A stretch of 64,000 bases of DNA from a plasmid: NCBI RefSeq assembly GCF_056746865.1, contig NZ_JBWKMP010000003.1; one strand, given 5' to 3'. Of this stretch, positions 3,006-45,411 are shown in pieces; within the stretch, counting starts at the first letter, position 1, and every line of letters begins with the position of its first letter. The translations under genes were made by a program, and so were the position numbers. The notes beneath the pieces are model-generated. The model was not told the DNA's origin. It worked only from the letters and a program-made list of their open reading frames with translations, and searched no databases.

Positions 3006-4043
3006 TTACCAGAGTTTTGCCGCGTACATCGTTTGTGTGAATGTGTACCCATAGCGTTCTTCAACGCTTTTACCGTATTTTTTCCTGGCTTCAGTAAGGC
3101 GGATGCCTGTCAGGTCATCGCCGGAGGCAATCATAACTTCCAGTAGTTCCAGGTCCATTTTATCCAGCCTTGCCATTGCATCTTTAGCCTCTTGAATTTT
3201 CCGGCTAACGATCTGGTGTATGGCTGGATCGGCTTCGGCCAGCATTTTATCTGATTTGTTTTTTAAACTCTGATTGCGGATATCAATGTTTCTCAGGATA
3301 TATGACTTCACGACGTAGCTTGGCTGCTGCTTTTCCAGATCACGAACCCGATAAAGGTCAAATTCGCCGAGAAGTCCGCACGGAAGCGGTTTAATGCCAG
3401 TGTAAATGGTAAGGGTGCGGCGCTCACCAACGTTGTTAACAACGGGAATCTCTGTGTTTGCTTTTTTTGCAAAGATCAGCGCACCGTGCGTACCCACTCT
3501 GAAGCGTGAAAGTCCATTGTTGCCCTCAATATTGGTGGTAATCACCACATCGGTATAACCTTCTTTTCTTGCGCGGTATACCTCGCCCTCACGTTCAGCG
3601 GCGAAGAATCTGCGTTCTTCTTCAAGCGCACCGACAACCTGTGAAAATATCCTGTTTTTCATGCTTTTCTTTATAGTTTTATCGTATTTTTTCAGCAGGT
3701 CTTCGCGCGTAAATGTTCTCGTTGTGGTTGCGCTTTGCATAACGATGTGCGTACTCTGATTAGTATCCTCAACAATGAATGGGATCGGTAAATAAACCGA
3801 CTCAACAATGTTTGAGGCTTTGTCATCATCCTTGCGACACAGATCAACAAAGGCTTTCCATTCGGCTATGCATTTTTCAGCTTCTTCTAATACAGCCGGA
3901 TCATGTGTTAATGCAACATGGCGAAATTCCTCGCCAACATAACTGGTATCATGGAAAACAGAGTTTGCGACCACCAGCTCTTTCCACCTTTCAGCGGTTT
4001 GCAGGAACCGTTTGTACTCATTCTCGATCGACTTCTTACTCAT
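3006..4043 (-). CDS. hypothetical protein in the c1 immunity-repressor slot
   Basis: Start taken at the internal ATG (plus 4041-4043) with AGGAA Shine-Dalgarno; operator-like motifs lie just upstream; position between pacB and rox/dre matches P1 c1; no recognised domain. Confidence 0.5.
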   Translation of the reverse strand: MSKKSIENEYKRFLQTAERWKELVVANSVFHDTSYVGEEFRHVALTHDPAVLEEAEKCIAEWKAFVDLCRKDDDKASNIVESVYLPIPFIVEDTNQSTHIVMQSATTTRTFTREDLLKKYDKTIKKSMKNRIFSQVVGALEEERRFFAAEREGEVYRARKEGYTDVVITTNIEGNNGLSRFRVGTHGALIFAKKANTEIPVVNNVGERRTLTIYTGIKPLPCGLLGEFDLYRVRDLEKQQPSYVVKSYILRNIDIRNQSLKNKSDKMLAEADPAIHQIVSRKIQEAKDAMARLDKMDLELLEVMIASGDDLTGIRLTEARKKYGKSVEERYGYTFTQTMYAAKLW

Positions 4044-4060
4044 TATTCCTACTCGATTTA

Positions 4061-4157
4061 GTTTTCTAACATAAAAGTCCTGTGACAAATTTATGCTGAA
4101 TAACAAGGTGAGTAAAGGATAAAACCGCTTTTTTTTGATTGTTCCTATTAGAAAATG
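4061..4157. promoter_or_regulatory. two operator-like motifs upstream of the immunity-slot gene
   Basis: GTTTTCTAACA at 4061-4071 and ATTAGAAAATG at 4147-4157; same motif family as the palindromes at 24565 and 35913. Confidence 0.4.
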
Positions 4158-5452: not shown

Positions 5453-5498
5453 ATTAATTTTCTAACAACCTTTTTAGACAGTGCATTTTAATGTAAAG

Positions 5499-7516: not shown

Positions 7517-8323
7517 GTGGAAAATACCAAGAACATTCAATATCGCTTGCGTAACGGCCTGCTGGTGGATGTAAACGATGATATGTCCCTGCCCTTTGCC
7601 ACCATTGAGCGAACCATCCTTACATACCTGGGCTTAGACGAAGAGTTAGATAGTGAGAATGGCATTGCTATCTGGCGTGACGGAAAAACGGGAGTCAGAC
7701 GTTTTATTACGGCAAGAGGCATTCAGTGCACACAGGAAGAATTGTTTGAACTGGCGCAGTCTTATGGATGCATCGCGTTAGATCCCCTGTATGACCCAGC
7801 CATAGCACAACAACTCATTCGAGAGCTGTCGCTTTCGGTCACGCCAATAATCTTCCGCCAGGGAACCTTAACCGGCACATGGCGTGTAGAACGCATCTCT
7901 AAATATCAGCCATATAATATCCATTTGAACGGCACTATTACTGGTGTGGATCAACCAGTAGCAGGTGAAAACAAAGACCTGGAACTTGCAGTAATGATGG
8001 CAGCTTGTCGCGTGCTTGGCCTGGGCAAGCAGATGTTTATCCATTTCCCAAACGGCGCGGAAGGCGAAGTAGAGCTGATTTCCTGCGACTTTTCCTTAAC
8101 CTGGATGCTTGATGAATTCCTGGACAAAACAGTATTCCGTGCTGAAGAACTGGATATGTATGTCACCTCAAGTATTCCTAATGACGTGAAAGTTGAGGCC
8201 ATCGCTACAGCCAGGGCGAAATGCCGTGCGGCGATTGCAGAACAGGCCAAAGAAGAACAGTCCGATGAAGTCGCGGCAGATGTGGAGGCAGAGGTAGCGG
8301 AGGATGCTGATGCTGACGCCTAA
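7517..8323 (+). CDS. hypothetical protein with acidic C-terminal tail
   Basis: GTG start with GGAG Shine-Dalgarno; 268 aa; ends in an Asp/Glu/Ala-rich tail. Confidence 0.45.
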   Translation: MENTKNIQYRLRNGLLVDVNDDMSLPFATIERTILTYLGLDEELDSENGIAIWRDGKTGVRRFITARGIQCTQEELFELAQSYGCIALDPLYDPAIAQQLIRELSLSVTPIIFRQGTLTGTWRVERISKYQPYNIHLNGTITGVDQPVAGENKDLELAVMMAACRVLGLGKQMFIHFPNGAEGEVELISCDFSLTWMLDEFLDKTVFRAEELDMYVTSSIPNDVKVEAIATARAKCRAAIAEQAKEEQSDEVAADVEAEVAEDADADA

Positions 8324-9410
8324 AAACATCACCGAATTACCAGAGTGGAGAGAGCTGGTAAGCAAATATAGCCATGACTGGGCATTAGCAGCAGAAGAGT
8401 TGATGGGTGTTAAGTTAACCCACCAGCAAAAGCTAATTGTTGAGGCGATTCAACAAAAAGGTTCAGCAGTCAGCGTCACCACTCCTGAAGGGATAGGCCA
8501 AAAGACGGTTATCGCTATAATTAGTATTCTTTATACAATCCTGATGCCTGAGTCTAAAACGGTTATTGTTTCCCCAAAGTTCTATAATTGTCGCAGGCAA
8601 GTTATCCAATACATAAGTACGTATTGGGATAGAGTCAGTAACAGAATCCCATTGCTGGGAGAATATTTTAAAGTCGACGGAAACGGCATCAATCATCGTT
8701 ACCGGGAATATTGGGGCTGCGAAATTAAGCCATATCACCGAAATTATGAGGAAGGTTTCGGTGGATATTATGCTGAACATCTTTTAATCATTGTTACGGA
8801 GGCGGCTCTTGCTGGCGATCGGCTATTCAGCATGTTAAGAGCATCGTTAGTAAGTGACGATTCACGTATACTTTTAATGTCCGCTCCTTCAGAGGAGGAG
8901 CATGGACACTTTTACGATTCCCATCATGGTCGTGCAAAATCAGAAGAAAATCCATGTGGTATTTATACAGCCATCAAGCTGAACGCAGAAGATACCCCCA
9001 TTATTTCACAAGGTTATCTTGATAACATTGCAGAAATATATGGTGGTAAAAACAGCGATTACTACCGTCGCATGATTCTTGGTGAGTTTCCAGGTATTAG
9101 GGAGGCTGTTCTTGAATCAGATATGCCGAAAACAATGCGCTTTTCGATGCCTGATGGTAGTGAATGGATAATGCCATTACGAGTGATAGCCCGGCATCAT
9201 GCACAGCACCACGCCAAAAAACATGGCGTTACAACATTGGAGTGGTTGAAATCGCACACCATTCCACTCTTCACTGCAGATCACAATGCTATCGTTGAGT
9301 GGGCAAAAACAATTCCGTGGGAGAATGTCGCTGAATACGCCCACATGCTAAAACCGCCGAAAGACAGGCAAGAAATTAGCTGGCTGACAGCAGAAAAAAT
9401 CATTGAGTGA
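8304..9410 (+). CDS. terminase-large-subunit ATPase-domain paralog with degenerate Walker motifs
   Basis: Clear similarity to the 1460-2968 ATPase domain (THQQKLIVEAIQ.. vs SHQQQQIIQSVQ..; FYDSHHGRAKSEENP vs FYESHHSRAKAEGNP), but Walker A reads TTPEGIGQKT and Walker B IVTEAA; no nuclease-domain counterpart. Confidence 0.6.
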   Translation: MLMLTPKNITELPEWRELVSKYSHDWALAAEELMGVKLTHQQKLIVEAIQQKGSAVSVTTPEGIGQKTVIAIISILYTILMPESKTVIVSPKFYNCRRQVIQYISTYWDRVSNRIPLLGEYFKVDGNGINHRYREYWGCEIKPYHRNYEEGFGGYYAEHLLIIVTEAALAGDRLFSMLRASLVSDDSRILLMSAPSEEEHGHFYDSHHGRAKSEENPCGIYTAIKLNAEDTPIISQGYLDNIAEIYGGKNSDYYRRMILGEFPGIREAVLESDMPKTMRFSMPDGSEWIMPLRVIARHHAQHHAKKHGVTTLEWLKSHTIPLFTADHNAIVEWAKTIPWENVAEYAHMLKPPKDRQEISWLTAEKIIE

Positions 9411-9826: not shown

Positions 9827-10047
9827 TATCGGTTAACCAGTTCCTTGTTGGTGGAGTCCAGGGTGTCAAACAGGGATGCAAATTCAGCATCCAGCGCCGC
9901 TTTTTTGTAGGCTTCGAAAGTAGCCTTGCTGACAATTACTGCTGGCTCACGGCCTCTGCGGGTGATTTCAACCTCTTCCCCGGCTTCAACATTGTTGAGC
10001 ACTTCAGAAAGGTTGCCACGCGCGGTACGGAAGTTAATGGATTGCAT
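9826..10047 (-). CDS. phd: Phd antitoxin
   Basis: [32 protein letters not shown]...; start taken at the second ATG of the track ORF. Confidence 0.85.
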
Positions 10048-10119
10048 AAACACCTCGTGTACTCGTTATGTGTACACAATTATAAACTTCACAGGCATAA
10101 AGCACCAGCACTTTGCAGC

Positions 10120-10509
10120 TTAAATAACCGGACAATCATCAAATTCCCCACTTCGGGCATCATTGATGACATGAGTGATCACACCAAAAACAGCATTACT
10201 GCCCGTGTATCCATCGTCATCTACTGGTAACGCCTCTTTCTTCCCGGTGCTTAAGTCCTCCAGGTGCTGGCGCGGATACTTCCTGTATCTCTTTATGCGA
10301 TATTCACCCTCCATAGCGCACACAAGCAGAGAACCATCAACCGGAGTAAGCGAGGAATCAACCACCAGCAAAGCACCCTGCAATATTCCCTCACGGTGAT
10401 GGCTATCAGCTGCCCGCATGAAGTAGGTCGCTGAAGGATGTCTAATTATCTGCTGATCAAGAGAAATTCGGCTTTCAACATAATCCGCCGCAGGAGAAGG
10501 GAAGCCCAT
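10120..10509 (-). CDS. humD: UmuD'-like SOS mutagenesis protein HumD
   Basis: 129 aa; S24-peptidase/UmuD-like core (..RAADSH...LLVVDSS..RIKRY..); same neighbourhood as humD in P1. Confidence 0.75.
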   Translation of the reverse strand: MGFPSPAADYVESRISLDQQIIRHPSATYFMRAADSHHREGILQGALLVVDSSLTPVDGSLLVCAMEGEYRIKRYRKYPRQHLEDLSTGKKEALPVDDDGYTGSNAVFGVITHVINDARSGEFDDCPVI

Positions 10510-10632
10510 AGCGTTTTACCTCAATGATACTGTTTATTCATACAGTATACATTGAAAAGGCATAGTTTGTGAAAGCGGGGTTTGTAGGCGCGCCACGCTG
10601 GGGGCTAATCACATTTCTCCCCCATCTTGCCG

Positions 10633-10884
10633 TTATTTTTTTGGTGCATCCTCGTTCTGATACACCGGATCGCTCCCTTTTGGCAACTGGAGGCTTAACT
10701 GCCGATAGTGCCGTAACCGTTCCATGAAATAGGTGCGCAGATTCTCTGGTTGCTCGCGGGCTACCTGTTCAGCTATGACAGGTATGTTCAATCGCTCTTT
10801 GTACGCCACACCGCTGGCAGCCAGATCAACGTTAACCTTATCCCGTTCTTCCTGACTTTTAGCTGCAATATTCCAGTCGCTCAT
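10633..10884 (-). CDS. hot: DNA polymerase III theta-subunit homolog (Hot)
   Basis: [36 protein letters not shown] closely parallels the HolE theta sequence. Confidence 0.7.
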
Positions 10885-10886
10885 AT

Positions 10887-11153
10887 TTAAGGCTCACATT
10901 TCCAGATGGTATTCTGAACACCCGAACCGGGCGCAAGATTAGGGTTGGCGTTCGCGCTATGCTGATATACTGCTTTAGACTTCCCATATTGCTGACAGGC
11001 TTTATCTGCGGTTTTTTGCAGGCTATCCAGGCCATACCAACCATCTGACTGTATGCTTACCTTTTCACCGTCGTTGTATTGCACCATTGCACACCCAGAT
11101 ATAGCCAGTATCGCACCGACAATAACGCTTTTCCATAAAACTCTATGCAACAT
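10887..11153 (-). CDS. putative lipoprotein
   Basis: Signal peptide with lipobox (LAISGC); GAGGGGA Shine-Dalgarno; start at the ATG rather than the track's TTG. Confidence 0.45.
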
Positions 11154-17718: not shown

Positions 17719-18447
17719 TTATTCCTGAATGCGCTTAAACTCGATTACCCACACCCAGGGATTAGCGTTCCAGCTTTCTTCACCATAGATGGATTCCCAC
17801 AGGCGCTGGAACGCAACCTTGGCCATTGCGAAATCCCCCTTGGGAGTAAGGAATGTTCCCGGGTGATCAGGAAGCAAACTTCCAGCAGGCGGAACGCCCT
17901 CAGCCCTTGCATCGCATTCGCTGATATCGTTCAACCGTTCAACGCGCACGTTGGTAATTTCCAACAGAATGCGTGATGCCCATCGCGGCATGTGAATTGA
18001 TGGACGCCACCCACCATCAAACTTTTCATTCACAGTGTGAGGTTTCCAGTCGGCATCATCGGGTATCGACCATAAGCCGTAATCACCAGGTTTTTGCTCG
18101 CAACTGGCCCGATAAATCCTTGCTGCGTTCTTCTCATCGCCACGACAAAGGTTGTCGTTCCAGTCCACACTGCAACCATCCTCATTGCCTAATATCGCCC
18201 ATGTTTCACGAACCCAAATTCGATCGCCGACGATACCAAATGGGCAATTGAAAACACTGCTTACACCATCAGCCCCGTACCACTGAAAACCTGCACCAAT
18301 TTTTCTAACCATCACTGGTGCTTCTGGACCAACTTCCGCAGGCTGATTTTTCATTATCCGCCGCGTCTGCGTTTTCCTTCCTTCGAGGATGGCCCGGACC
18401 ATCTCATCGTTAAAAATCATCCCGCGTTCTTTCATTTTTTGATCCAC
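17719..18447 (-). CDS. ASCH-domain-like protein
   Basis: N-terminal FNDEMVRAILEGRKTQTRR and C-terminal WVWVIEFKRI resemble YqfB-type ASCH proteins. Confidence 0.45.
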   Translation of the reverse strand: MDQKMKERGMIFNDEMVRAILEGRKTQTRRIMKNQPAEVGPEAPVMVRKIGAGFQWYGADGVSSVFNCPFGIVGDRIWVRETWAILGNEDGCSVDWNDNLCRGDEKNAARIYRASCEQKPGDYGLWSIPDDADWKPHTVNEKFDGGWRPSIHMPRWASRILLEITNVRVERLNDISECDARAEGVPPAGSLLPDHPGTFLTPKGDFAMAKVAFQRLWESIYGEESWNANPWVWVIEFKRIQE

Positions 18448-18451
18448 TCCA

Positions 18452-19447
18452 TCAGTTATTGAACGTGATCACTCCGCGCTCGATGGCGAAGTCGAAAAGC
18501 TGGTTGGCGGCTACGTAAAGGCGTATGCCATGTGCTTTTTCCCATGCCCGGACATCGTTTTCTGCGCTTCTGGCGCATTCATCGCAAAGAGGAACGGCCC
18601 AGCGATCGTGTTCGTTTAACGAGCGGGCGCGGTACATGAACGGGTGATTAACTTTGCCTCCGCATCCGATGCACGGACGAGAAATCACAAACCGGAGATA
18701 AGCCGGGCTTTTACCGAGAACCGCTTTTGGTCGGCGCATATACAGCAGGCCGGAATCCTCATCTACAGACAGGTTGACGATCTGCTCTGCGGTTATGTCC
18801 ACCAGCTCACGGGTGCTGTGCTCCCAGGTGATATCCGATTCTTTCAGTGTGCCGGTAGGGATTTCCTGTTTTGGCTGACAAAATGCAATGCGACCGGCTT
18901 CATCTGGCAGCTCGTCTTTCAGATTCCGGCGAATGGCCCAAAAAGTGAGTTCAACCATGCTCAGATCGCGTTCTGGCGGTAGTTTTAACTCGCTCGCAGC
19001 CCAGTTCATAACCCAGTTGGCACGATTCAGGGATAACTGGTCATCCAGCTTGCCGTACCCCTTCATCATGTATTCCGCATCATGCTTCCAGCACAGGCGA
19101 ACGGCAGAGCCGTTATAGAAATGAGTGGTTAGCTGGTGGCTGCAATCGCGCTTATCGTGCGCCTGGCAATCGTGGATATTGGAACTTACCCAATGAACAA
19201 GCGAATCTTCACCGCCTAATGCGTTAAATACGCGCTCGCTTTGAAAAAATGCTTTCAGAGACTGGTTGGCAACCAGCGAATAGTTCAGATCCACTACGCC
19301 ATCTGGCGTGTTTTCAGCCTGTTCGCGCGGAAGTGGAGAGATAATGAAACGGCGACCTGCGCCAATGTAGTTGCTGGTGGGCTTGTCTACCGGAAAGACA
19401 GCCACACCAGCTCCGTTTACGAAATGAGGTGTGATTATTGCACTCAT
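18452..19447 (-). CDS. DUF968-like protein with a C-terminal Ref/HNH-like Cys-His cluster
   Basis: RPCIGCGG..H....VPLCDEC at the C-terminus, similar in pattern to the ref-like gene at 24641. Confidence 0.45.
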   Translation of the reverse strand: MSAIITPHFVNGAGVAVFPVDKPTSNYIGAGRRFIISPLPREQAENTPDGVVDLNYSLVANQSLKAFFQSERVFNALGGEDSLVHWVSSNIHDCQAHDKRDCSHQLTTHFYNGSAVRLCWKHDAEYMMKGYGKLDDQLSLNRANWVMNWAASELKLPPERDLSMVELTFWAIRRNLKDELPDEAGRIAFCQPKQEIPTGTLKESDITWEHSTRELVDITAEQIVNLSVDEDSGLLYMRRPKAVLGKSPAYLRFVISRPCIGCGGKVNHPFMYRARSLNEHDRWAVPLCDECARSAENDVRAWEKAHGIRLYVAANQLFDFAIERGVITFNN

Positions 19448-19490
19448 AATGTATACCGACTCTGTTTTGTTCCGAGCGGTAAAATAATAT

Positions 19491-19520
19491 GTTAGAAAAT
19501 TAAAATCAATATTCTAACAC
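19491..19520. promoter_or_regulatory. operator-like imperfect palindrome (internal promoter region)
   Basis: GTTAGAAAAT..ATTCTAACAC between the phosphatase gene and the DUF968-like gene. Confidence 0.4.
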
Positions 19521-19551
19521 GGTTTTGAGTGCATAAACGATGTGTTCAGGA

Positions 19552-20238
19552 TTACGGCTGGCCTCCCTTCACCTGCTTTAGCGTCAGATTTCCGCAAAAA
19601 ACCGCGCCAGTGTCTATGTAGTGCTGGTTCCAGAAAGATTTCGGGCTGTTTACTGGCGTATGCCCGAAAATAAAGCTATCTGCACCAGTGATCATTCCAC
19701 CAACACCATCAACCGCGTCATAAAATCGCTCACGCCGCCAGGTAACATTGAGATCGCTAACAGGTTTACCAAACTGGTATTCGTTATCAGGATAGTCGGC
19801 ATGGGCTATAACGATAGTTTCATGCCCGGTGTTCAACTCAATGATATAGGGTAAACGTCTTACCAGCTCCACCAGCGCCCTGGCTAATATTTCCCGATCA
19901 GCGTCCAGCATGAAGAACCATTGGCCGCCATTCATTAGCCAGTTATTCACGTTGCCTGCGGGGCTTAACGCATCGATCATTAATCGCTCGTGGTTTCCCA
20001 TAACCGACCGAAACCAGGGCATCTGCAATAGCTCCAAGCATTCAACATTTTCGGTGCCGCGATCGATAAGGTCGCCAACCGATATCAGTAAATCCTGTGT
20101 CGGGTCAAAGTCCACACGATGAAGTTCAGACATCAATCTGGTGTAGCAACCATGCAGATCACCAACAACCCATATGTTTCTGTAGCCTGAACCATCAATA
20201 CGGCCATATAAATTCACTTCATGCAGCGCCTGGGTCAT
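19552..20238 (-). CDS. Ser/Thr protein phosphatase (lambda PP / NinI-like)
   Basis: Metallophosphoesterase motifs GDLHG, GDLIDRG, GNHE; start at the internal ATG. Confidence 0.75.
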
Positions 20239-20546
20239 GCGGCAACCTTCTCCCGCAGCCAGATACAAACCGGGCCATCTTCAGTGTCATGAATAGAGCC
20301 AACAAACCATCCTTCGCCCTCTGGTCGCTCTGGTTCCCAGGCGGCAATATCGGGACCATCTGCGTCCAGATTAAAATGATCTTCATCCATACTGCGAATA
20401 GTCCACTGAAGATTATTATCCTTCATCCAGGCGTCAAATTCCTCAGTGGATATATATTCACGACCTGCGCAAAACTTTTCATATTCCGGATGTGTCCAGC
20501 AGCCATATTCATCACGTTCTACCGGCATTTCTTTAATGATGCTCAC
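20235..20546 (-). CDS. hypothetical protein
   Basis: 103 aa; start and stop overlap the neighbouring genes. Confidence 0.4.
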
Positions 20547-20767
20547 TCTTCATCCTCCAAGTCGGCAACGGCCTCCATCACATCAGAACCGCGAATAACC
20601 TCAAAAGCACGGCAGGCCATTTCAAACACCTGTTGTTCTTGCGGATGCGGTGACTCCCAATACTTAAAACCAGGTCGATGCTCGTAACCCAACATGGAAT
20701 AAAAATCGCCAGCAAGTTCAATCGCTGCATCAACAAGTTCGCGATTTGTCATCGTCTGTTCTGTCAT
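20543..20767 (-). CDS. hypothetical protein
   Basis: 74-aa acidic ORF in the operon chain. Confidence 0.4.
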   Translation of the reverse strand: MTEQTMTNRELVDAAIELAGDFYSMLGYEHRPGFKYWESPHPQEQQVFEMACRAFEVIRGSDVMEAVADLEDEE

Positions 20768-21039
20768 TTTGTTTTCTCCTGTCTGAACATCACTATCATC
20801 AGGTCGCCTTTTGTCGCTATCCTGGCTGTTGTACCTGGTTCAATGCGGCTAAGCTCAAATGCGTCATAGAACGCTTCTAATGCCTTCTGGCGTAGTTCCT
20901 GTTTGCGCCGTTTTTTCCACTGTTTTAGGAAAATGGAACCCAGCCATCGCCATGTACGGGACATGATGTAAAGCCAACCGAGAAGTGCCAGACCGGTATT
21001 TAGGAGCGTATCGATCGTTATTGTCGTGTCGATATTCAC
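20764..21039 (-). CDS. small membrane protein
   Basis: GTG start overlapping the upstream stop after the conserved AAGGAGG; one hydrophobic helix. Confidence 0.4.
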   Translation of the reverse strand: MNIDTTITIDTLLNTGLALLGWLYIMSRTWRWLGSIFLKQWKKRRKQELRQKALEAFYDAFELSRIEPGTTARIATKGDLMIVMFRQEKTK

Positions 21040-21803
21040 TGGCTGCCTCCTTTGCGAAGCTGGTCGGCGAACAAACGTACACTAGACGCTTCACTGCGTA
21101 GAAACTTAACGGCATAATCAAAACCACCTCGTTCTGCGTCGTCTGCTCCGTTGTCGAGGTTATCTGCGTACATCTCTACCCCCTGCGCACGTACTTCAGC
21201 CAGGAAAGCATCGGTGGCTGGGGTATCAACACGGATACTGTCGCGCAAGATGAAAAATGCATTGAGCATTCCAGTCTCTGGCACTTCATCCTGATGCTTC
21301 TCATACGCATCAAGAGCCTTCATCATCTCAGCTCCGAATGGTTGAGGGTGCACAGACTTCAGCTCCGCATTCTCCGCCGCCAGCACCGCGCGTTCGCTCT
21401 CCAGTTCTGTAATGCGCCGTCTTGCAGCATCCAGTTCAATCGACAATTTTCCCAACTGCTCTTTATGCTTCTTGTATTCCTGATATGCGTGCCAAGACTG
21501 ACCTTTGCGCACACTATCCGTGATATCAGTAATCTGTTCTGGTGTTAGCGTGGTCAGTGGCTGTGCTGGGAAAATCAGCACTTTCCCAGCATCCCAATCA
21601 AAACCCACCTGAATTGACTGAACCTCAACTGATGGTGTTGAACCGATGCGACCAGGCGAATGAACAACGATCGTTACATCCATATCGCGACGATGGCTGT
21701 GGTTGTTGGACAAAATACGATTCACCAACTCCGAGAATTTGGAAAATTTCATGCTGATTCCCTTTGCTCTTCCTGGATAATGTTGTTGCAATCTTTCACG
21801 CAC
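21036..21803 (-). CDS. accessory protein, [13 protein letters not shown] / QLRKGGSQ paralog family
   Basis: 255 aa; motif shared with 15909-16571. Confidence 0.5.
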
Positions 21804-22072
21804 TCGTTGCAGATGAAAACGTTGTCCCCGGCAATTAACTTTTTAACGGTGTGCTGGGATTTGTTGCAGAAGCTGCAATAAAGCGTTGGACTGGCTGATA
21901 TGGATGGTGCGCCAGATGTCAGCCGCGCGATGTCGTTCTTGCGACGCAATATCACACGGCTGCACTCGACCAGCATCTCCGGGGATATATCCTCCTCCGT
22001 GGCGAGCGCCTCCAGACGTTCGAGCAAGCGAAATACTTTTTCCTGGGTGATTGCAGAATGCGATGTGGTCAT
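21749..22072 (-). CDS. ClpX N-terminal zinc-binding-domain-like protein
   Basis: [36 protein letters not shown] closely mirrors the ClpX C4 zinc-binding domain; AAGGAGAG Shine-Dalgarno; no AAA+ module. Confidence 0.5.
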
Positions 22073-22073
22073 C

Positions 22074-22724
22074 TCACTCTCCTTTGATGCGAATGCCAGC
22101 GGCACGGGAGTCATTCCATCGCTTTACTTCTTCACGAATTACGTCAATGCATTCTTTCGAATCCATTAGGTAATCTTCATCAAAAAGCCTTTCCTGTTCG
22201 TTTTCTATCGCAACAATGATTGCTTCAACTAACTTTTGTGCCTGAGAACCACTTTCTAACTCTGCAATGCGCTTCTCTGCGGCTTCCAGCTTCTCGCGCA
22301 TATCGTCAACGTACTCGACCAGAGATCCGCCAGCAGGAATTTCGCACTCCTCGACCAGTTGGAAGTAGATATCAGCTGCGGCCCGTGTGTTGCTATGCCT
22401 AGCGTCGCCCATCTCACCTTCACGAAGAGCATCGCGTTCGGCGGTAAGATTGGCTATTTTGCTGTCTTTGCCTTCAAGCTCAACGCGCAGCTTCCCTACC
22501 GTTAGCGCAATATCCTCGTTCTCCTGGTCGCGGCGTTTTATGTATTGCTGGTTTCTTTCCCGTTCATCCAGCAGCGCCAGCACAATGTGTGGCGTTATCA
22601 AGGACTCAAATTCGGCAACAGCTTGCTCACCTCGCTTGTAATTCTTAATCCCACCTAAATCTTTCGCGTTCTGTGCCGCCTCACGCAGCGCCAGTGTGTC
22701 GATGTCGATGTCGATGTTGCTCAT
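22074..22724 (-). CDS. Ea22-like family protein
   Basis: Shares the [35 protein letters not shown] block and C-terminal AAGIRIKGE with 15160-15912. Confidence 0.55.
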
Positions 22725-22954
22725 TGTGCCTCCTCGATTTCGTCCCATTCCACCCAGGCATTCTCTCCATCAGCATCGATTTCACCTTTGTGACCGCATT
22801 TGGAACAAACGGCCTCATCACCCGCCCACAAAGAATCTTTGGTTACCGACCATCCTGTTACCCTGGCTTTGCCGTGCTGGCACCTAGGGCAATCATCAAG
22901 CCATTCGACTTCGACCGTTGAAGGACCAAATCCATGTTCAGTTCGGATGCTCAT
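22721..22954 (-). CDS. zinc-ribbon protein
   Basis: CPRCQHG...CSKCGH; AAGGAG Shine-Dalgarno; overlaps the upstream stop. Confidence 0.45.
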   Translation of the reverse strand: MSIRTEHGFGPSTVEVEWLDDCPRCQHGKARVTGWSVTKDSLWAGDEAVCSKCGHKGEIDADGENAWVEWDEIEEAQ

Positions 22955-23454
22955 GACTGAACTCCTTTGCGAATCTGTTCCGCCCATTCTTCAAGGGATT
23001 TCTCCGCATATTCACCGGACAGGCCATCAATCGGATGCGGTTCATTAGCCAACTCTTCTTTCGCTGACAAAATCATGCGTGTAACGTCGAAAACTTCACG
23101 CAAAGACTTATTGATAAATCCGTGATTGAACGCAGCAGCAAGACGGCTTGCGGTGTAGTTAATCCCCTCGTTGCGTGCCTCCGCACGTATTTCAGCCAGG
23201 AAAGCGTCGGTGGCTGACATATTTCCTGTTGCCTTCATGGCCTTCAAAATAACCAGAACGCCATCTTGCCCAACCAACTCGGAGATAATCTCAGTGTTGT
23301 CGCCAACAACCTCACAGAATGCCTGAACAGCTTTACGAGCAAGTGCATTCTCCGCCGCCAGCGCCGCGCGCTCTTTCTCAAGTCGGGAAATTTCCGTTAC
23401 ATACTCAGCGTTACGCTCTGCCAGTTGTGCGGGCGTTAAACCTTCAGACTTCAT
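22951..23454 (-). CDS. accessory protein, TDAFLAEIRA paralog family
   Basis: 167 aa; motif family as 15909-16571. Confidence 0.45.
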   Translation of the reverse strand: MKSEGLTPAQLAERNAEYVTEISRLEKERAALAAENALARKAVQAFCEVVGDNTEIISELVGQDGVLVILKAMKATGNMSATDAFLAEIRAEARNEGINYTASRLAAAFNHGFINKSLREVFDVTRMILSAKEELANEPHPIDGLSGEYAEKSLEEWAEQIRKGVQS

Positions 23455-23728
23455 GCACTCTCCTTTCGAAATAAACGTACTGATTAATCATGCCCAGGGG
23501 CATTTCGAACTTTTCTGCGATCTCACGGCGGGGAACGCCACACTGATGAAGCTGCCGCGCCAGCTCTATATCGCTCTGCCGGTATTTGGCTGACTGGTGA
23601 AAGTCACCTTTCAGAATCATGCTGATCCGCAATTGCCGCGCTTTAGTCCTGACAGCACCACCGGTACGCCCGATCAGTCTCCCAATACCCTCGACTGTCA
23701 TAGTCCCGGCGCACTGGCGGAGTATCAT
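23444..23728 (-). CDS. putative DNA-binding protein
   Basis: Two helix-turn-helix-like repeats (GRLIGRTGGAVRTKARQL and GVPRREIAEKFEMP). Confidence 0.35.
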   Translation of the reverse strand: MILRQCAGTMTVEGIGRLIGRTGGAVRTKARQLRISMILKGDFHQSAKYRQSDIELARQLHQCGVPRREIAEKFEMPLGMINQYVYFERRVHEV

Positions 23729-23757
23729 GATTTCTGCCCTTCCCCATCCCCGCCAGC

Positions 23758-24369
23758 TCACGCAGAACTCCTTCTAACCAAAAGAACGCCATCTTCAGAA
23801 ACAACGTTGCAGGACTTCAGGTAATTCATTGCCTCTTTCGGTAATGGATTCTTTGGATCGGCGCTTGCCAGGGATTTCGATAACCTCATGATAAATTTGA
23901 TCATTACCTTCTGACGGAGCTTGTGCTCATGGGATGCAGACAGGTAATAGGAAATGGTATGGGCTAAACGCTCACGAAGCTGTTCTGTGCCGTGATATAC
24001 AGCAGCGATATCACGCAGTGCATTGACCAGTTCCCGGTAAATATGCGGAGCAACCTGGCATTCAATGTTGGTTGGTGACTCATAAATTACATTCAGCCCC
24101 AGCTTTTGAGCCAGCTCGTGCTCTGCACGAGCGCCAACTGATTCCTCCCACCCCTTGAGCAAATAGACCGCATTAGCCGAACGCACCATTGCAAGGCAAA
24201 TATCCATGTATTCGCTCTGGCAGAGGCCAGCAGGTAACAGCGCCGGATTCAGAACAATATGCCCTACCTCCATCAGCTCTTTTGCTTTCGAAAAAAACGC
24301 TGTGCGGTTGTAGTCGGGATAACCAGTCATCGGACCCGCGATGTAAATTTTCATAATGCGTTTTGACAT
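23758..24369 (-). CDS. DUF4406 (nucleoside 2-deoxyribosyltransferase-like) protein
   Basis: MKIYIAGPMTGYPDYN N-terminal signature; start at the internal ATG. Confidence 0.55.
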   Translation of the reverse strand: MSKRIMKIYIAGPMTGYPDYNRTAFFSKAKELMEVGHIVLNPALLPAGLCQSEYMDICLAMVRSANAVYLLKGWEESVGARAEHELAQKLGLNVIYESPTNIECQVAPHIYRELVNALRDIAAVYHGTEQLRERLAHTISYYLSASHEHKLRQKVMIKFIMRLSKSLASADPKNPLPKEAMNYLKSCNVVSEDGVLLVRRSSA

Positions 24370-24521
24370 CAAAGTTTCCCCAGGAACGTTACGCAAAAGT
24401 TAATGAGAGCAAAGAGTTCAATGCCCAGCTCAAACAACGCCAGGACAGTGAAAAACAGGGCATATAGCAACCCAATTTCTGTACCGGATTGCTGGTGGAT
24501 TGCACTTATTGCGACAAGCAT
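24369..24521 (-). CDS. small hydrophobic peptide, first gene of the leftward operon
   Basis: 50 aa; GGAGG Shine-Dalgarno; stop overlaps the DUF4406 ATG (TGATG). Confidence 0.3.
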   Translation of the reverse strand: MLVAISAIHQQSGTEIGLLYALFFTVLALFELGIELFALINFCVTFLGKL

Positions 24522-24564
24522 CATGACCTCCTGATATAGCGTCTGAAAAAAGTATCTTCATTTT

Positions 24565-24596
24565 GTGTTAGAAAATCAATTTTGATTTTCTAACAC
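24565..24596. promoter_or_regulatory. palindromic operator in the divergent promoter region
   Basis: GTGTTAGAAAATCAA-tt-TTGATTTTCTAACAC; 15-bp arms, perfect apart from the centre. Confidence 0.55.
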
Positions 24597-24640
24597 TTTT
24601 GATCAACCATAGCGGCGATGTAGACAAACCGGGTATTTCT

Positions 24641-25216
24641 ATGAAGCAAAGCTATTGGGAGAAACAGACACAAAAAGCCCTGCAAAAACTGGCTGATCCG
24701 AAATGGCGGGAGGAACAAAGGGCAAAGCGTCTTCAGCAAGCTCAACGCCAGCAGCAGCGTGCGCGAGAAAAAGCCGCATCGCCTGAATATCGGCAAAAGA
24801 AAATTGAAAAAGCGAAGCAATATGAACAGCGAAGAAAAGAGAAGGCCGCTTCTGCTCCTGTCAAAAAAACTCGCGCGTCACGCGGCCTGAAAGGCAGAAC
24901 ACTCACAGCAGATGAGCGCCGGATACAAACTGCCATCGGTGCTCTCCCCTGCATTGCCTGCCATATGCACGGACAGCATAGCCCTGTGGTATCCCTGCAC
25001 CACATCTTCGGGAGAACAGCAGAAAACGCGCATAAATACGTCCTCCCTTTGTGTAAATGGCACCATCAACACGCAGCGCCAGCAGAGATCCGCGAGCAAT
25101 ACCCCTGGTTGGTTCCTGTTCATGCTGATGGAAAAATAGGCGGCAAAGCAGATTTCAGGCGGCACAATGCTGATGAAATGACGTTGTATCAGATGGTGAC
25201 TGAATTAATAAATTAA
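24641..25216 (+). CDS. ref: Ref-like HNH endonuclease (recombination enhancement function)
   Basis: Highly charged, basic N-terminal region followed by a Cys/His HNH-like core (CIACHMHG...LPLCKWHH); start at ATG 24641, not the track's TTG. Confidence 0.5.
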   Translation: MKQSYWEKQTQKALQKLADPKWREEQRAKRLQQAQRQQQRAREKAASPEYRQKKIEKAKQYEQRRKEKAASAPVKKTRASRGLKGRTLTADERRIQTAIGALPCIACHMHGQHSPVVSLHHIFGRTAENAHKYVLPLCKWHHQHAAPAEIREQYPWLVPVHADGKIGGKADFRRHNADEMTLYQMVTELIN

Positions 25217-25547
25217 TTTTCTAACATTTTAAGTTGAATTGTGAAATTCGCCGTTGTACATTCACAACCGATTGGTACACCGGTCAACTTTTTGAGACAA
25301 ACCGTTTGGTTTTTCGTATGATTGCCGCCGCCATACCAATGGCGGTGCAATATAGGTGGCTGAAAAGCCCCCGTTGACTCACGGTGTTCCAACCTTTATT
25401 GCGCCGCCACCAGACCGTGGAACAGTCGATGGCGGCTCCGAAAGCAAGGAGTCACTACACTATGAACAGCTACTGTCTTTTCCCATCACTCGTTATCCGC
25501 CACTCACGCGATAATCTGCATTCTTTACTCGCGCTGGGGGTGTCAAA

Positions 25548-35912: not shown

Positions 35913-35956
35913 AAAACTGTGTTAGATAATTGAGTTTTATTTTCTAACACAGTTTT
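35913..35956. promoter_or_regulatory. palindromic operator upstream of rdgC
   Basis: AAAACTGTGTTAGA ... TCTAACACAGTTTT: perfect 14-bp arms with GTTAGA / TCTAAC cores. Confidence 0.5.
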
Positions 35957-45330: not shown

Positions 45331-45411
45331 TGTTCTAATGTTTTATGTTAGAAAATTAAGATTAAACCATACTAACACAAGATTGTTAACGAAAATTATT
45401 TTTCTAATGCT
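45331..45411. promoter_or_regulatory. divergent control region with three operator-like motifs
   Basis: TGTTCTAATG (45331), GTTAGAAAATT (45347), TTTTCTAATGC (45401); TTGACT -35-like hexamer at 45412. Confidence 0.4.

Follow-up and report, generated by a model that had tools for sequence, protein, structure and literature searches.

Active-site histidines appear to be lost from the PdcB relative of a D6-like phage-plasmid that also encodes an ordinary Ref

Both ref and pdcB are carried by phage P1. P1 ref is a lytic gene repressed by C1, and its product amplifies the SOS response and the lytic cycle after DNA damage (PMC4713147). H153 of P1 Ref coordinates the active-site metal and the H134A/H153A variant is nuclease-dead (PMC3973344, PMC4713147); the roles of Ref zinc and active-site residues used below are taken from the same two papers. 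P1 pdcB is listed as a gene of unknown function and is non-essential for plaque formation (efficiency of plating 0.68; PMC10695390), and it ranks among the 21 extremely conserved genes of P1-like phage-plasmids (PMC9603915). A classification of the His-Me finger superfamily from 2017 put DUF968, the family of PdcB, together with DUF1364 into group 7 and RecA_dep_nuc, the family of Ref, into groups 26/31, and it put forward the hypothesis that the DUF968 group, like NinG and the RecA-dependent endonucleases, has a part in recombination (PMC5714182). That Ref and DUF968 share a superfamily is therefore not new. Here we compare with these systems a stretch of 64,000 nt from a plasmid (NCBI RefSeq assembly GCF_056746865.1, contig NZ_JBWKMP010000003.1), called the window throughout. 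It encodes an ordinary Ref and a PdcB orthologue that, judged by its sequence, keeps the four zinc cysteines of an HNH-type module while every active-site histidine is replaced. The initial annotation of this DNA, made from its letters, had already placed a DUF968-like and a ref-like gene here, and the list of open reading frames (ORFs) bears out both positions:

18452–19447, minus strand: ORF A, 331 amino acids, PdcB orthologue of the DUF968 family
24641–25216, plus strand: ORF B, 191 amino acids, Ref orthologue

ORF A belongs to DUF968, as had been proposed. Searches against Pfam matched its residues 161–325 to the whole model PF06147 (positions 1–171, E=1.7e-44), PHROG 96 matched over the full length (E=1e-102), and identity reached 98% to orf98 of phage D6 and 38% to P1 PdcB (341 columns, full length, E=2e-73). 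The protein is net acidic and has no basic tail. The part that resembles Ref is the following module:

18473–18712, minus strand: C-terminal His-Me finger module of ORF A, residues ~246–325

In 30 of 35 full-length family members this module carries the canonical signature C-x2-C … DDPHH … GxGGMG … KAHD … PLC-R-x-[C/H]-H-x-E-L-H. ORF A, its 98% twin, P1 PdcB and the family member P0124 read C-x2-C … (N)HPFM … EHDRW … PLC-D-E-C-A-R-S-A-E instead, and the GxGGMG loop (7 residues) is deleted in all four. The active-site histidines of ORF B are H120/H121, H142 and H161 (H112/113, H134 and H153 in P1 numbering), and profile-profile alignment maps Ref residues onto ORF A as follows:

Ref H120 (P1 residue not individually mapped): F270 of ORF A
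Ref H121 (P1 residue not individually mapped): M271
Ref H141, a zinc ligand (P1 H133): C291
Ref H142 (P1 H134): A292
Ref H161 (P1 H153): E296

The family consensus HH, [CH]H and LH is FM, CA and AE in ORF A, and the lost positions include both of those mutated in nuclease-dead P1 Ref. ORF A lacks the general-base His at beta-1 and the His/Asn/Asp ligands in the alpha-helix that characterise HNH endonucleases. A structural zinc site of the form CxxC … Cxx[C/H] can be recognised in its sequence (C259, C262, C288, C291) and is conserved in the clade. The motif PCIGCGG..H..VPLCDEC that had first drawn attention to ORF A holds up in its cysteines, which are these four; its lone histidine, H268, is not clade-conserved. 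In structure, the C-terminal module of ORF A is closest to Ref, with every active-site histidine replaced and the zinc cysteines kept.

The lost-histidine state was found in 18 of 18 clusters of the ORF A clade (47–98% identity). It is shared by P1 PdcB and by a relative on contig L007 (Logan SRR32291423, 90,566 bp), whereas the closest homologues from lambdoid phages, SfV orf45 and Edwardsiella EPP-1, are canonical. Conserved within the clade are the four cysteines, an EHDR[WY] motif and D298. The position of the last histidine is occupied by E, S, A, L, T, D or R and H268 by R, T or Q in relatives, and because both vary, no replacement set of ligands is conserved. The ratio of nonsynonymous to synonymous substitution rates (dN/dS) of ORF A against D6 is 0.083; pdcB is under strong purifying selection despite the lost histidines. 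This pattern is that of a stable, selected, non-catalytic derivative and not of a decaying gene, and we rejected a pseudogene reading of ORF A on the grounds of dN/dS and clade conservation. The alignments indicate that the PdcB clade of phage-plasmids keeps four zinc cysteines and replaces all active-site histidines, which seems not to have been reported before. ORF A is most likely a non-catalytic 'pseudo-nuclease', that is, a zinc-stabilised DNA-binding protein of HNH fold, and we infer both its lack of catalysis and its DNA binding.

Across DUF968, the C-terminal module (columns around ORF A residues 259–296) occurs in three states: with zinc cysteines and catalytic histidines; with catalytic histidines and no zinc cysteines, e.g., PCVVTG…PLSPEAH in P0150, P0155, P0166, P0173, P0198 and P0216; and with zinc cysteines and no catalytic histidines, which is the P1/D6 clade. 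The three states imply that the zinc scaffold and the active site were lost independently in different branches.

ORF A contains a second, probable zinc module nearer its N terminus:

18989–19270, minus strand: N-terminal module of ORF A, residues ~60–153, in the model a second beta-beta-alpha unit

Its conserved residues are C94, C/H102, C119 and H122, within the family motif CQ…[CH]…LCWHHDN. Comparison of this module with Ref by hhalign gave a probability of 25%, via the shared LC-WHH motif. An internal duplication test, hhalign of the N- against the C-terminal module of ORF A, was not significant (probability 3%, E=0.015), so the idea of a tandem HNH arrangement rests on structure and not on sequence. 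The putative general-base position of the module is not conserved, and the His before beta-1 is mostly N or S in the clade. With moderate confidence, we regard the N-terminal module as probably a structural, non-catalytic zinc module of HNH ancestry, and ORF A as modelled would consist of two tandem HNH-like zinc modules. The NinB/Orf-like N-terminal domain that marks the Orf/NinB-HNH fusions (HNHc_6; PhiNM1 Gp16, phiETA Orf20), known from DUF968/HNHc_6 proteins of the Gram-positive side, is absent from ORF A.

ORF B is an ordinary Ref (recombination enhancement function) and, by homology, a predicted nickase of the HNH type that would depend on RecA filaments. The initial description of this gene as ref-like, with a charged N terminus and a CIAC..H..LPLC..HH core, is confirmed: ORF B matched RecA_dep_nuc (PF16786, E=7.7e-36), the solved structure of P1 Ref (PDB 3PLW, E=3.1e-52) and PHROG 2321 (E=2e-81), and it shares 54% of its residues with P1 Ref and 92% with D6 Ref. 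Its ATG start agrees with homologues such as D6 Ref; an in-frame TTG at 24599 is an alternative start. The protein divides into two parts:

24641–24892, plus strand: N-terminal basic segment of Ref, residues 1–84, equivalent to the tail of P1 Ref that is disordered and binds DNA
24893–25213, plus strand: HNH core of Ref, residues 85–191

Residues 1–84 contain 27 K/R and 9 D/E, compared with 25 positive and 9 negative residues in the P1 tail. The core motifs are PCIAC…SLHHI…LPLCKWHHQH…VPVHADG, with zinc knuckles formed by C104/C107 and C138/H141. Across 40 aligned Ref proteins, nine columns do not vary (C104, C107, H120, H121, H131, C138, H141, H142 and H161); H142/H161 correspond to H134/H153 of P1 Ref, and the zinc ligand H141 to P1 H133. 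By homology, ORF B would bind DNA through its basic N-terminal tail and nick, with its HNH core, DNA held in RecA filaments or D-loops; its RecA dependence is deduced from the same likeness. It may serve the lytic cycle by amplifying SOS, as in P1.

The resemblance between ORF A and ORF B is remote; the profile comparisons place it beyond chance and we take it to be real. Direct BLASTP was marginal (37 residues, E=0.11). Comparison of the 35-sequence PdcB/DUF968 alignment with the Ref alignment by hhalign gave 93.9% probability (E=1.5e-7, 79 columns), the C-terminal domain alone scored 96.2% (E=2.1e-9), and PHROG 1588 matches both proteins. The check proposed beforehand, whether an HNH fold is predicted at all, came out in favour of the fold, and the profile comparison links both families. 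A beta-beta-alpha-metal (HNH) fold is present in the predicted model of ORF A, which has a mean predicted local distance difference test (pLDDT) score of 83.4 as a whole. Neither ORF A by itself nor the 35-sequence profile had a match in sequence searches of the PDB; the link to solved structures is visible only by fold comparison, and Ref is the closest of them.

ORF A and ORF B belong to separate His-Me finger families and are not copies of each other. ORF A has none of the marks of the Ref family, neither the sequence match nor the basic tail nor the active-site histidines: a Pfam scan of ORF A gave no PF16786 match, and the 15-residue Ref-specific insert before the last histidine has no counterpart in ORF A in the profile alignment. 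The spacing of the zinc knuckles is 26 residues in ORF A and 31 in Ref; it is shorter in ORF A because the 7-residue loop of canonical DUF968 is absent. The proposal that the two proteins share the same Cys/His spacing therefore stands for the cysteines and falls for the histidines, since H268 does not align with the catalytic HH of Ref. Its companion, that they are two divergent copies of Ref, is contradicted by the separate families, the lack of a significant direct match and the missing basic tail of ORF A. A second recombination or anti-host activity, also suggested at the outset, is unlikely as well: ORF A has no histidine matching Ref H120/H121, H142 or H161, and the loss of the catalytic histidines makes a second nuclease activity unlikely.

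The element itself can be placed by its identity to known relatives. At the DNA level, the region under study shares 90.6% identity with Escherichia phage D6, and the window's first 25 kb share 98% with the E. coli plasmid NZ_LR890273 (92.8 kb). This identity assigns the window to a phage-plasmid of E. coli that is D6-like and belongs to the P1 family. Genes for Ref and PdcB co-occur in D6, P1, P7, JL22, RCS47 and MH422554, and we regard the pairing as ancestral in phage-plasmids of the P1 type. The pair as such is ordinary and already annotated in P1, P7 and D6. It had been taken as a hint at an extra activity of this element; it is not peculiar to the element, since P1 has ref and pdcB too. 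In D6, the counterpart of ORF A is annotated as orf98, 'HNH endonuclease, similar to P1 pdcB', and that of ORF B as orf87, 'Ref-like RecA filament endonuclease'; the labels in NZ_LR890273 are 'DUF968 domain-containing protein' and 'Ref family recombination enhancement nuclease', respectively. Searches of ORF A and ORF B against NCBIfam and PADLOC gave no matches and hence no link of either protein to known defence systems.

Both genes are accompanied by a sequence motif that resembles an operator, and a candidate repressor is encoded in the same window:

24565–24596: perfect inverted repeat GTGTTAGAAAATCAA/TTGATTTTCTAACAC, 15-nt arms and a 2-nt gap, 45 bp upstream of the ref ATG
25213–25225, minus strand: lone half-site, operator-like, that overlaps the stop codon of ref
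19491–19518: operator-like site, bivalent, with GTTAGAAAATTAA (plus strand) and GTTAGAATATTGA (minus strand), between ppp and ORF A
3006–4106, minus strand: candidate C1-type repressor, PHROG 1678 (start uncertain, PHROG match from residue 22)

The half-site GTTAGAAAAT[T/C]AA has 11 matches in the window compared with 2.2 expected, an approximately 5-fold enrichment that was reached in none of 100 shuffles. Further operator-like sites lie at 4058–4070 (minus), 5454–5466 (minus), 35936–35948 (minus) and 45347–45359 (plus); TTTTAT often precedes the sites, and some are bivalent or palindromic. The motif stands at the same three places (upstream of ref, at the ref stop and upstream of ORF A) in D6 and LR890273. 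P1 ref is bracketed by the C1 operators Oref and Omat. The palindrome sits at the place of Oref and is probably, by this analogy, a bivalent repressor operator, and the half-site at the ref stop agrees in position and strand with Omat, an operator overlapping the end of the P1 gene. The third site occupies part of the 104 bp that separate ppp from ORF A and lies 44–71 bp upstream of the ORF A ATG. This enriched, conserved motif upstream of both genes, in the geometry of Oref/Omat, is a candidate for the operator that C1-repressed genes have at or next to their promoter.

The product of the candidate repressor gene is 21% identical to P1 C1 over 241 amino acids (E=2e-7), and the gene occupies the same place as P1 c1, after pacB and before a Cre-like recombinase. 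It is up to 366 amino acids long from the first TTG and ~345 in annotated relatives; P1 C1 has 283. By analogy, this product would bind the motif. A search of the window for the P1 C1 operator consensus ATTGCTCTAATAAATTT with up to 3 mismatches gave 0 matches, so operators of the P1 type are absent from it. The window's motif is in turn absent from the L007 and P1 loci, as expected if immunity specificity differs, and inverted repeats of the window's type were not found between ref and pdcB in L007. The motif sites probably constitute the regulon of a D6-type C1 repressor, distinct from the operator sequence of P1. We infer, again by analogy, that this repressor uses the motif as its operator: during plasmid maintenance both genes would probably be silent, and induction would relieve their repression together.

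ORF A and ORF B lie 5.2 kb apart, and ORF B is divergent from a long minus-strand block that includes ORF A together with a DUF4406/deoxyribosyltransferase-like gene, ead/Ea22-like genes, a ClpX-type zinc-finger gene and the NinI-like phosphatase gene ppp. The intervening part, 19552–24396 (minus strand), is a mosaic of lambdoid-phage accessory genes, with the NinI-like Ser/Thr phosphatase (ppp), ead/Ea22-like genes, DUF4752, a ClpX C4-type zinc-finger protein, a D5-like regulator fragment and a DUF4406/nucleoside deoxyribosyltransferase-like protein. The adjacency of ppp and the DUF968 gene is more like a lambdoid nin-region module than like the place of P1 pdcB after phd-doc. On the other side of ORF A, the next gene follows closely:

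17719–18447, minus strand: ORF of 242 amino acids, PHROG 874, starting 4 nt past the ORF A stop

It is probably co-transcribed with ORF A. The slot downstream of pdcB holds a upf87.4-like gene in D6 and, in LR890273, a hypothetical protein followed by a PAPS-reductase family protein, and it is variable in that a different gene stands there in each of the two. In L007, the genes for Ref and PdcB (8281–8889, minus, and 10001–10996, plus) are divergent and 1.1 kb apart with a single 202-aa gene between them; its PdcB is 65% identical to ORF A, and the 5-kb lambdoid-like accessory block that separates the two genes in the window is lacking. On the circular map of P1, ~7 kb separate ref from pdcB, with the lox junction in between.

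Taken together, we consider it probable that the element pairs a functional Ref with a non-cutting PdcB, both likely under a C1-type repressor. Several observations weigh against this. The inactivity of ORF A is deduced from residues only. H268, H280, D281, E296 and D298 lie near the former active site and could build a different metal site; only H280, D281 and D298 of these are clade-conserved. P1 Ref H153A still makes the first nick in D-loops (PMC3973344), which means that single histidine losses do not always abolish HNH activity. The net acidic charge of ORF A lends no support to DNA binding, and Foldseek found no significant match in the PDB for the whole model. On the regulatory side, the operators are assigned by analogy, the palindrome upstream of ref also scores as a terminator-like hairpin, and a Pfam scan of the candidate repressor gave no match. 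P1 ref itself is reported to be under attenuator control.

The same residues bear on a reading we hold to be unlikely, that ORF A is an active HNH endonuclease with a non-canonical site (H268, H280/D281, E296, D298) or one in the N-terminal module, so that the element would have two nucleases with different substrates. The modelled HNH fold with its intact zinc scaffold, the strong purifying selection, the partial nicking kept by Ref H153A and a conserved H122-D123 pair in the N-terminal module would all suit such an enzyme, as would the position of canonical lambdoid relatives beside rusA and Q, like recombination nucleases. Yet the metal-holding and general-base positions of Ref and canonical DUF968 are all F, M, A and E in ORF A, the variable last position (E, S, A, L, T, D, R) and H268 (R/T/Q in relatives) leave no ligand set that is kept, and the His before beta-1 of the N-terminal module is mostly N or S. 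P1 PdcB and D6 orf98 are called 'HNH endonuclease' in RefSeq, and PHROG 96 likewise; these names come from family membership and not from assays, and P1 pdcB is listed as of unknown function. Far less plausible is that both genes are divergent copies of Ref, both RecA-dependent targeted nucleases serving two recombination or anti-host activities. It could draw on the remote homology, on Ref being the closest solved structure, on the recombination hypothesis for DUF968 (PMC5714182), on the 1.1-kb distance of the two genes in L007 and on PhiNM1 Gp16, a related HNH protein that binds RecA (PMC12817073) and whose core matches the DUF968 profile at 94.8%. Gp16 is, however, a Pfam HNHc_6 protein with a weak DUF968 match and a NinB-like N-domain that ORF A lacks, and ORF A has no RecA_dep_nuc match, a BLASTP E value of 0.11 to ORF B, another architecture (331 aa, two modules and no basic tail vs 191 aa and a basic tail) and neither the Ref-specific 15-residue insert nor the catalytic histidines.

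It is hardly credible that ORF A is a functionless, decaying relic of a former nuclease gene. The lost active-site residues and the dispensability of P1 pdcB for plaques (EOP 0.68, PMC10695390) would fit, but the 331-codon frame is intact with a dN/dS of 0.083, the derived state is kept across the clade down to 36–47% identity with invariant cysteines and EHDR[WY], and pdcB counts among the 21 genes found to be extremely conserved in P1-like phage-plasmids. A non-cutting PdcB, the reading we prefer, invites a speculative extension that we rate as quite improbable: PdcB might be a conserved dead tandem HNH fold that binds the substrates of Ref (RecA-coated DNA, D-loops) without cutting them and acts as partner, guide or brake for Ref. 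If true, this would explain why the genes travel together, their near-adjacency in some relatives and their apparent shared repressor control.

For annotation, the database name 'HNH endonuclease' for PdcB goes beyond what its sequence supports. P1-like PdcB proteins labelled in this way (RefSeq, PHROGs) are better treated as probable pseudo-nucleases with a likely DNA-binding role. As pdcB ranks with the most conserved genes in a group of plasmids that is common in clinical settings, this result narrows the hypotheses worth testing, and the operator-like motif provides a candidate repressor regulon for D6-type elements.

Set beside the described systems, ORF A shares its Pfam family with the canonical DUF968 proteins of group 7 (E. 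coli YdfU, SfV Orf45; related is DUF1364 YbcO, PDB 3G27). The two-module architecture is common to both, with 24–30% identity over 98% of the length, as are the N-module motif CQ…LCWHxD and the zinc knuckles. Canonical proteins keep DDPHH…PLCRx[CH]HxELH and the GxGGMG loop, whereas the ORF A clade has lost both, and their genes lie in a nin-like region next to rusA and Q (SfV orf45 between the two, the Edwardsiella EPP-1 homologue near rusA), whereas the ORF A clade is found on phage-plasmids. Gp16 of Staphylococcus phage PhiNM1 (HNHc_6) is a RecA-interacting nickase that cuts plasmid DNA without RecA (PMC12817073). It resembles DUF968 in its CxxC…CxxH-H…H core (hhalign 94.8%, E=5e-8; weak Pfam DUF968 match) and, as a phage early/accessory gene linked to RecA, also in its setting; it combines a NinB/Orf-like N-domain with intact catalytic histidines, whereas ORF A has an HNH-like N-terminal module and no catalytic histidines. 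Compared with P1 Ref, ORF B is encoded ~20 kb from the cre-like gene in the window and not adjacent to cre, and its repressor motif is unlike the P1 C1 operator. P1 pdcB follows phd-doc-pdcA and precedes lpa, whereas ORF A and its D6 counterpart follow the ppp phosphatase gene, and in the window and D6 the gene has an operator-like site of its own, unlike in the P1 setting. Common to ORF A, P1 PdcB and D6 orf98 are the two-module layout and the lost catalytic histidines.

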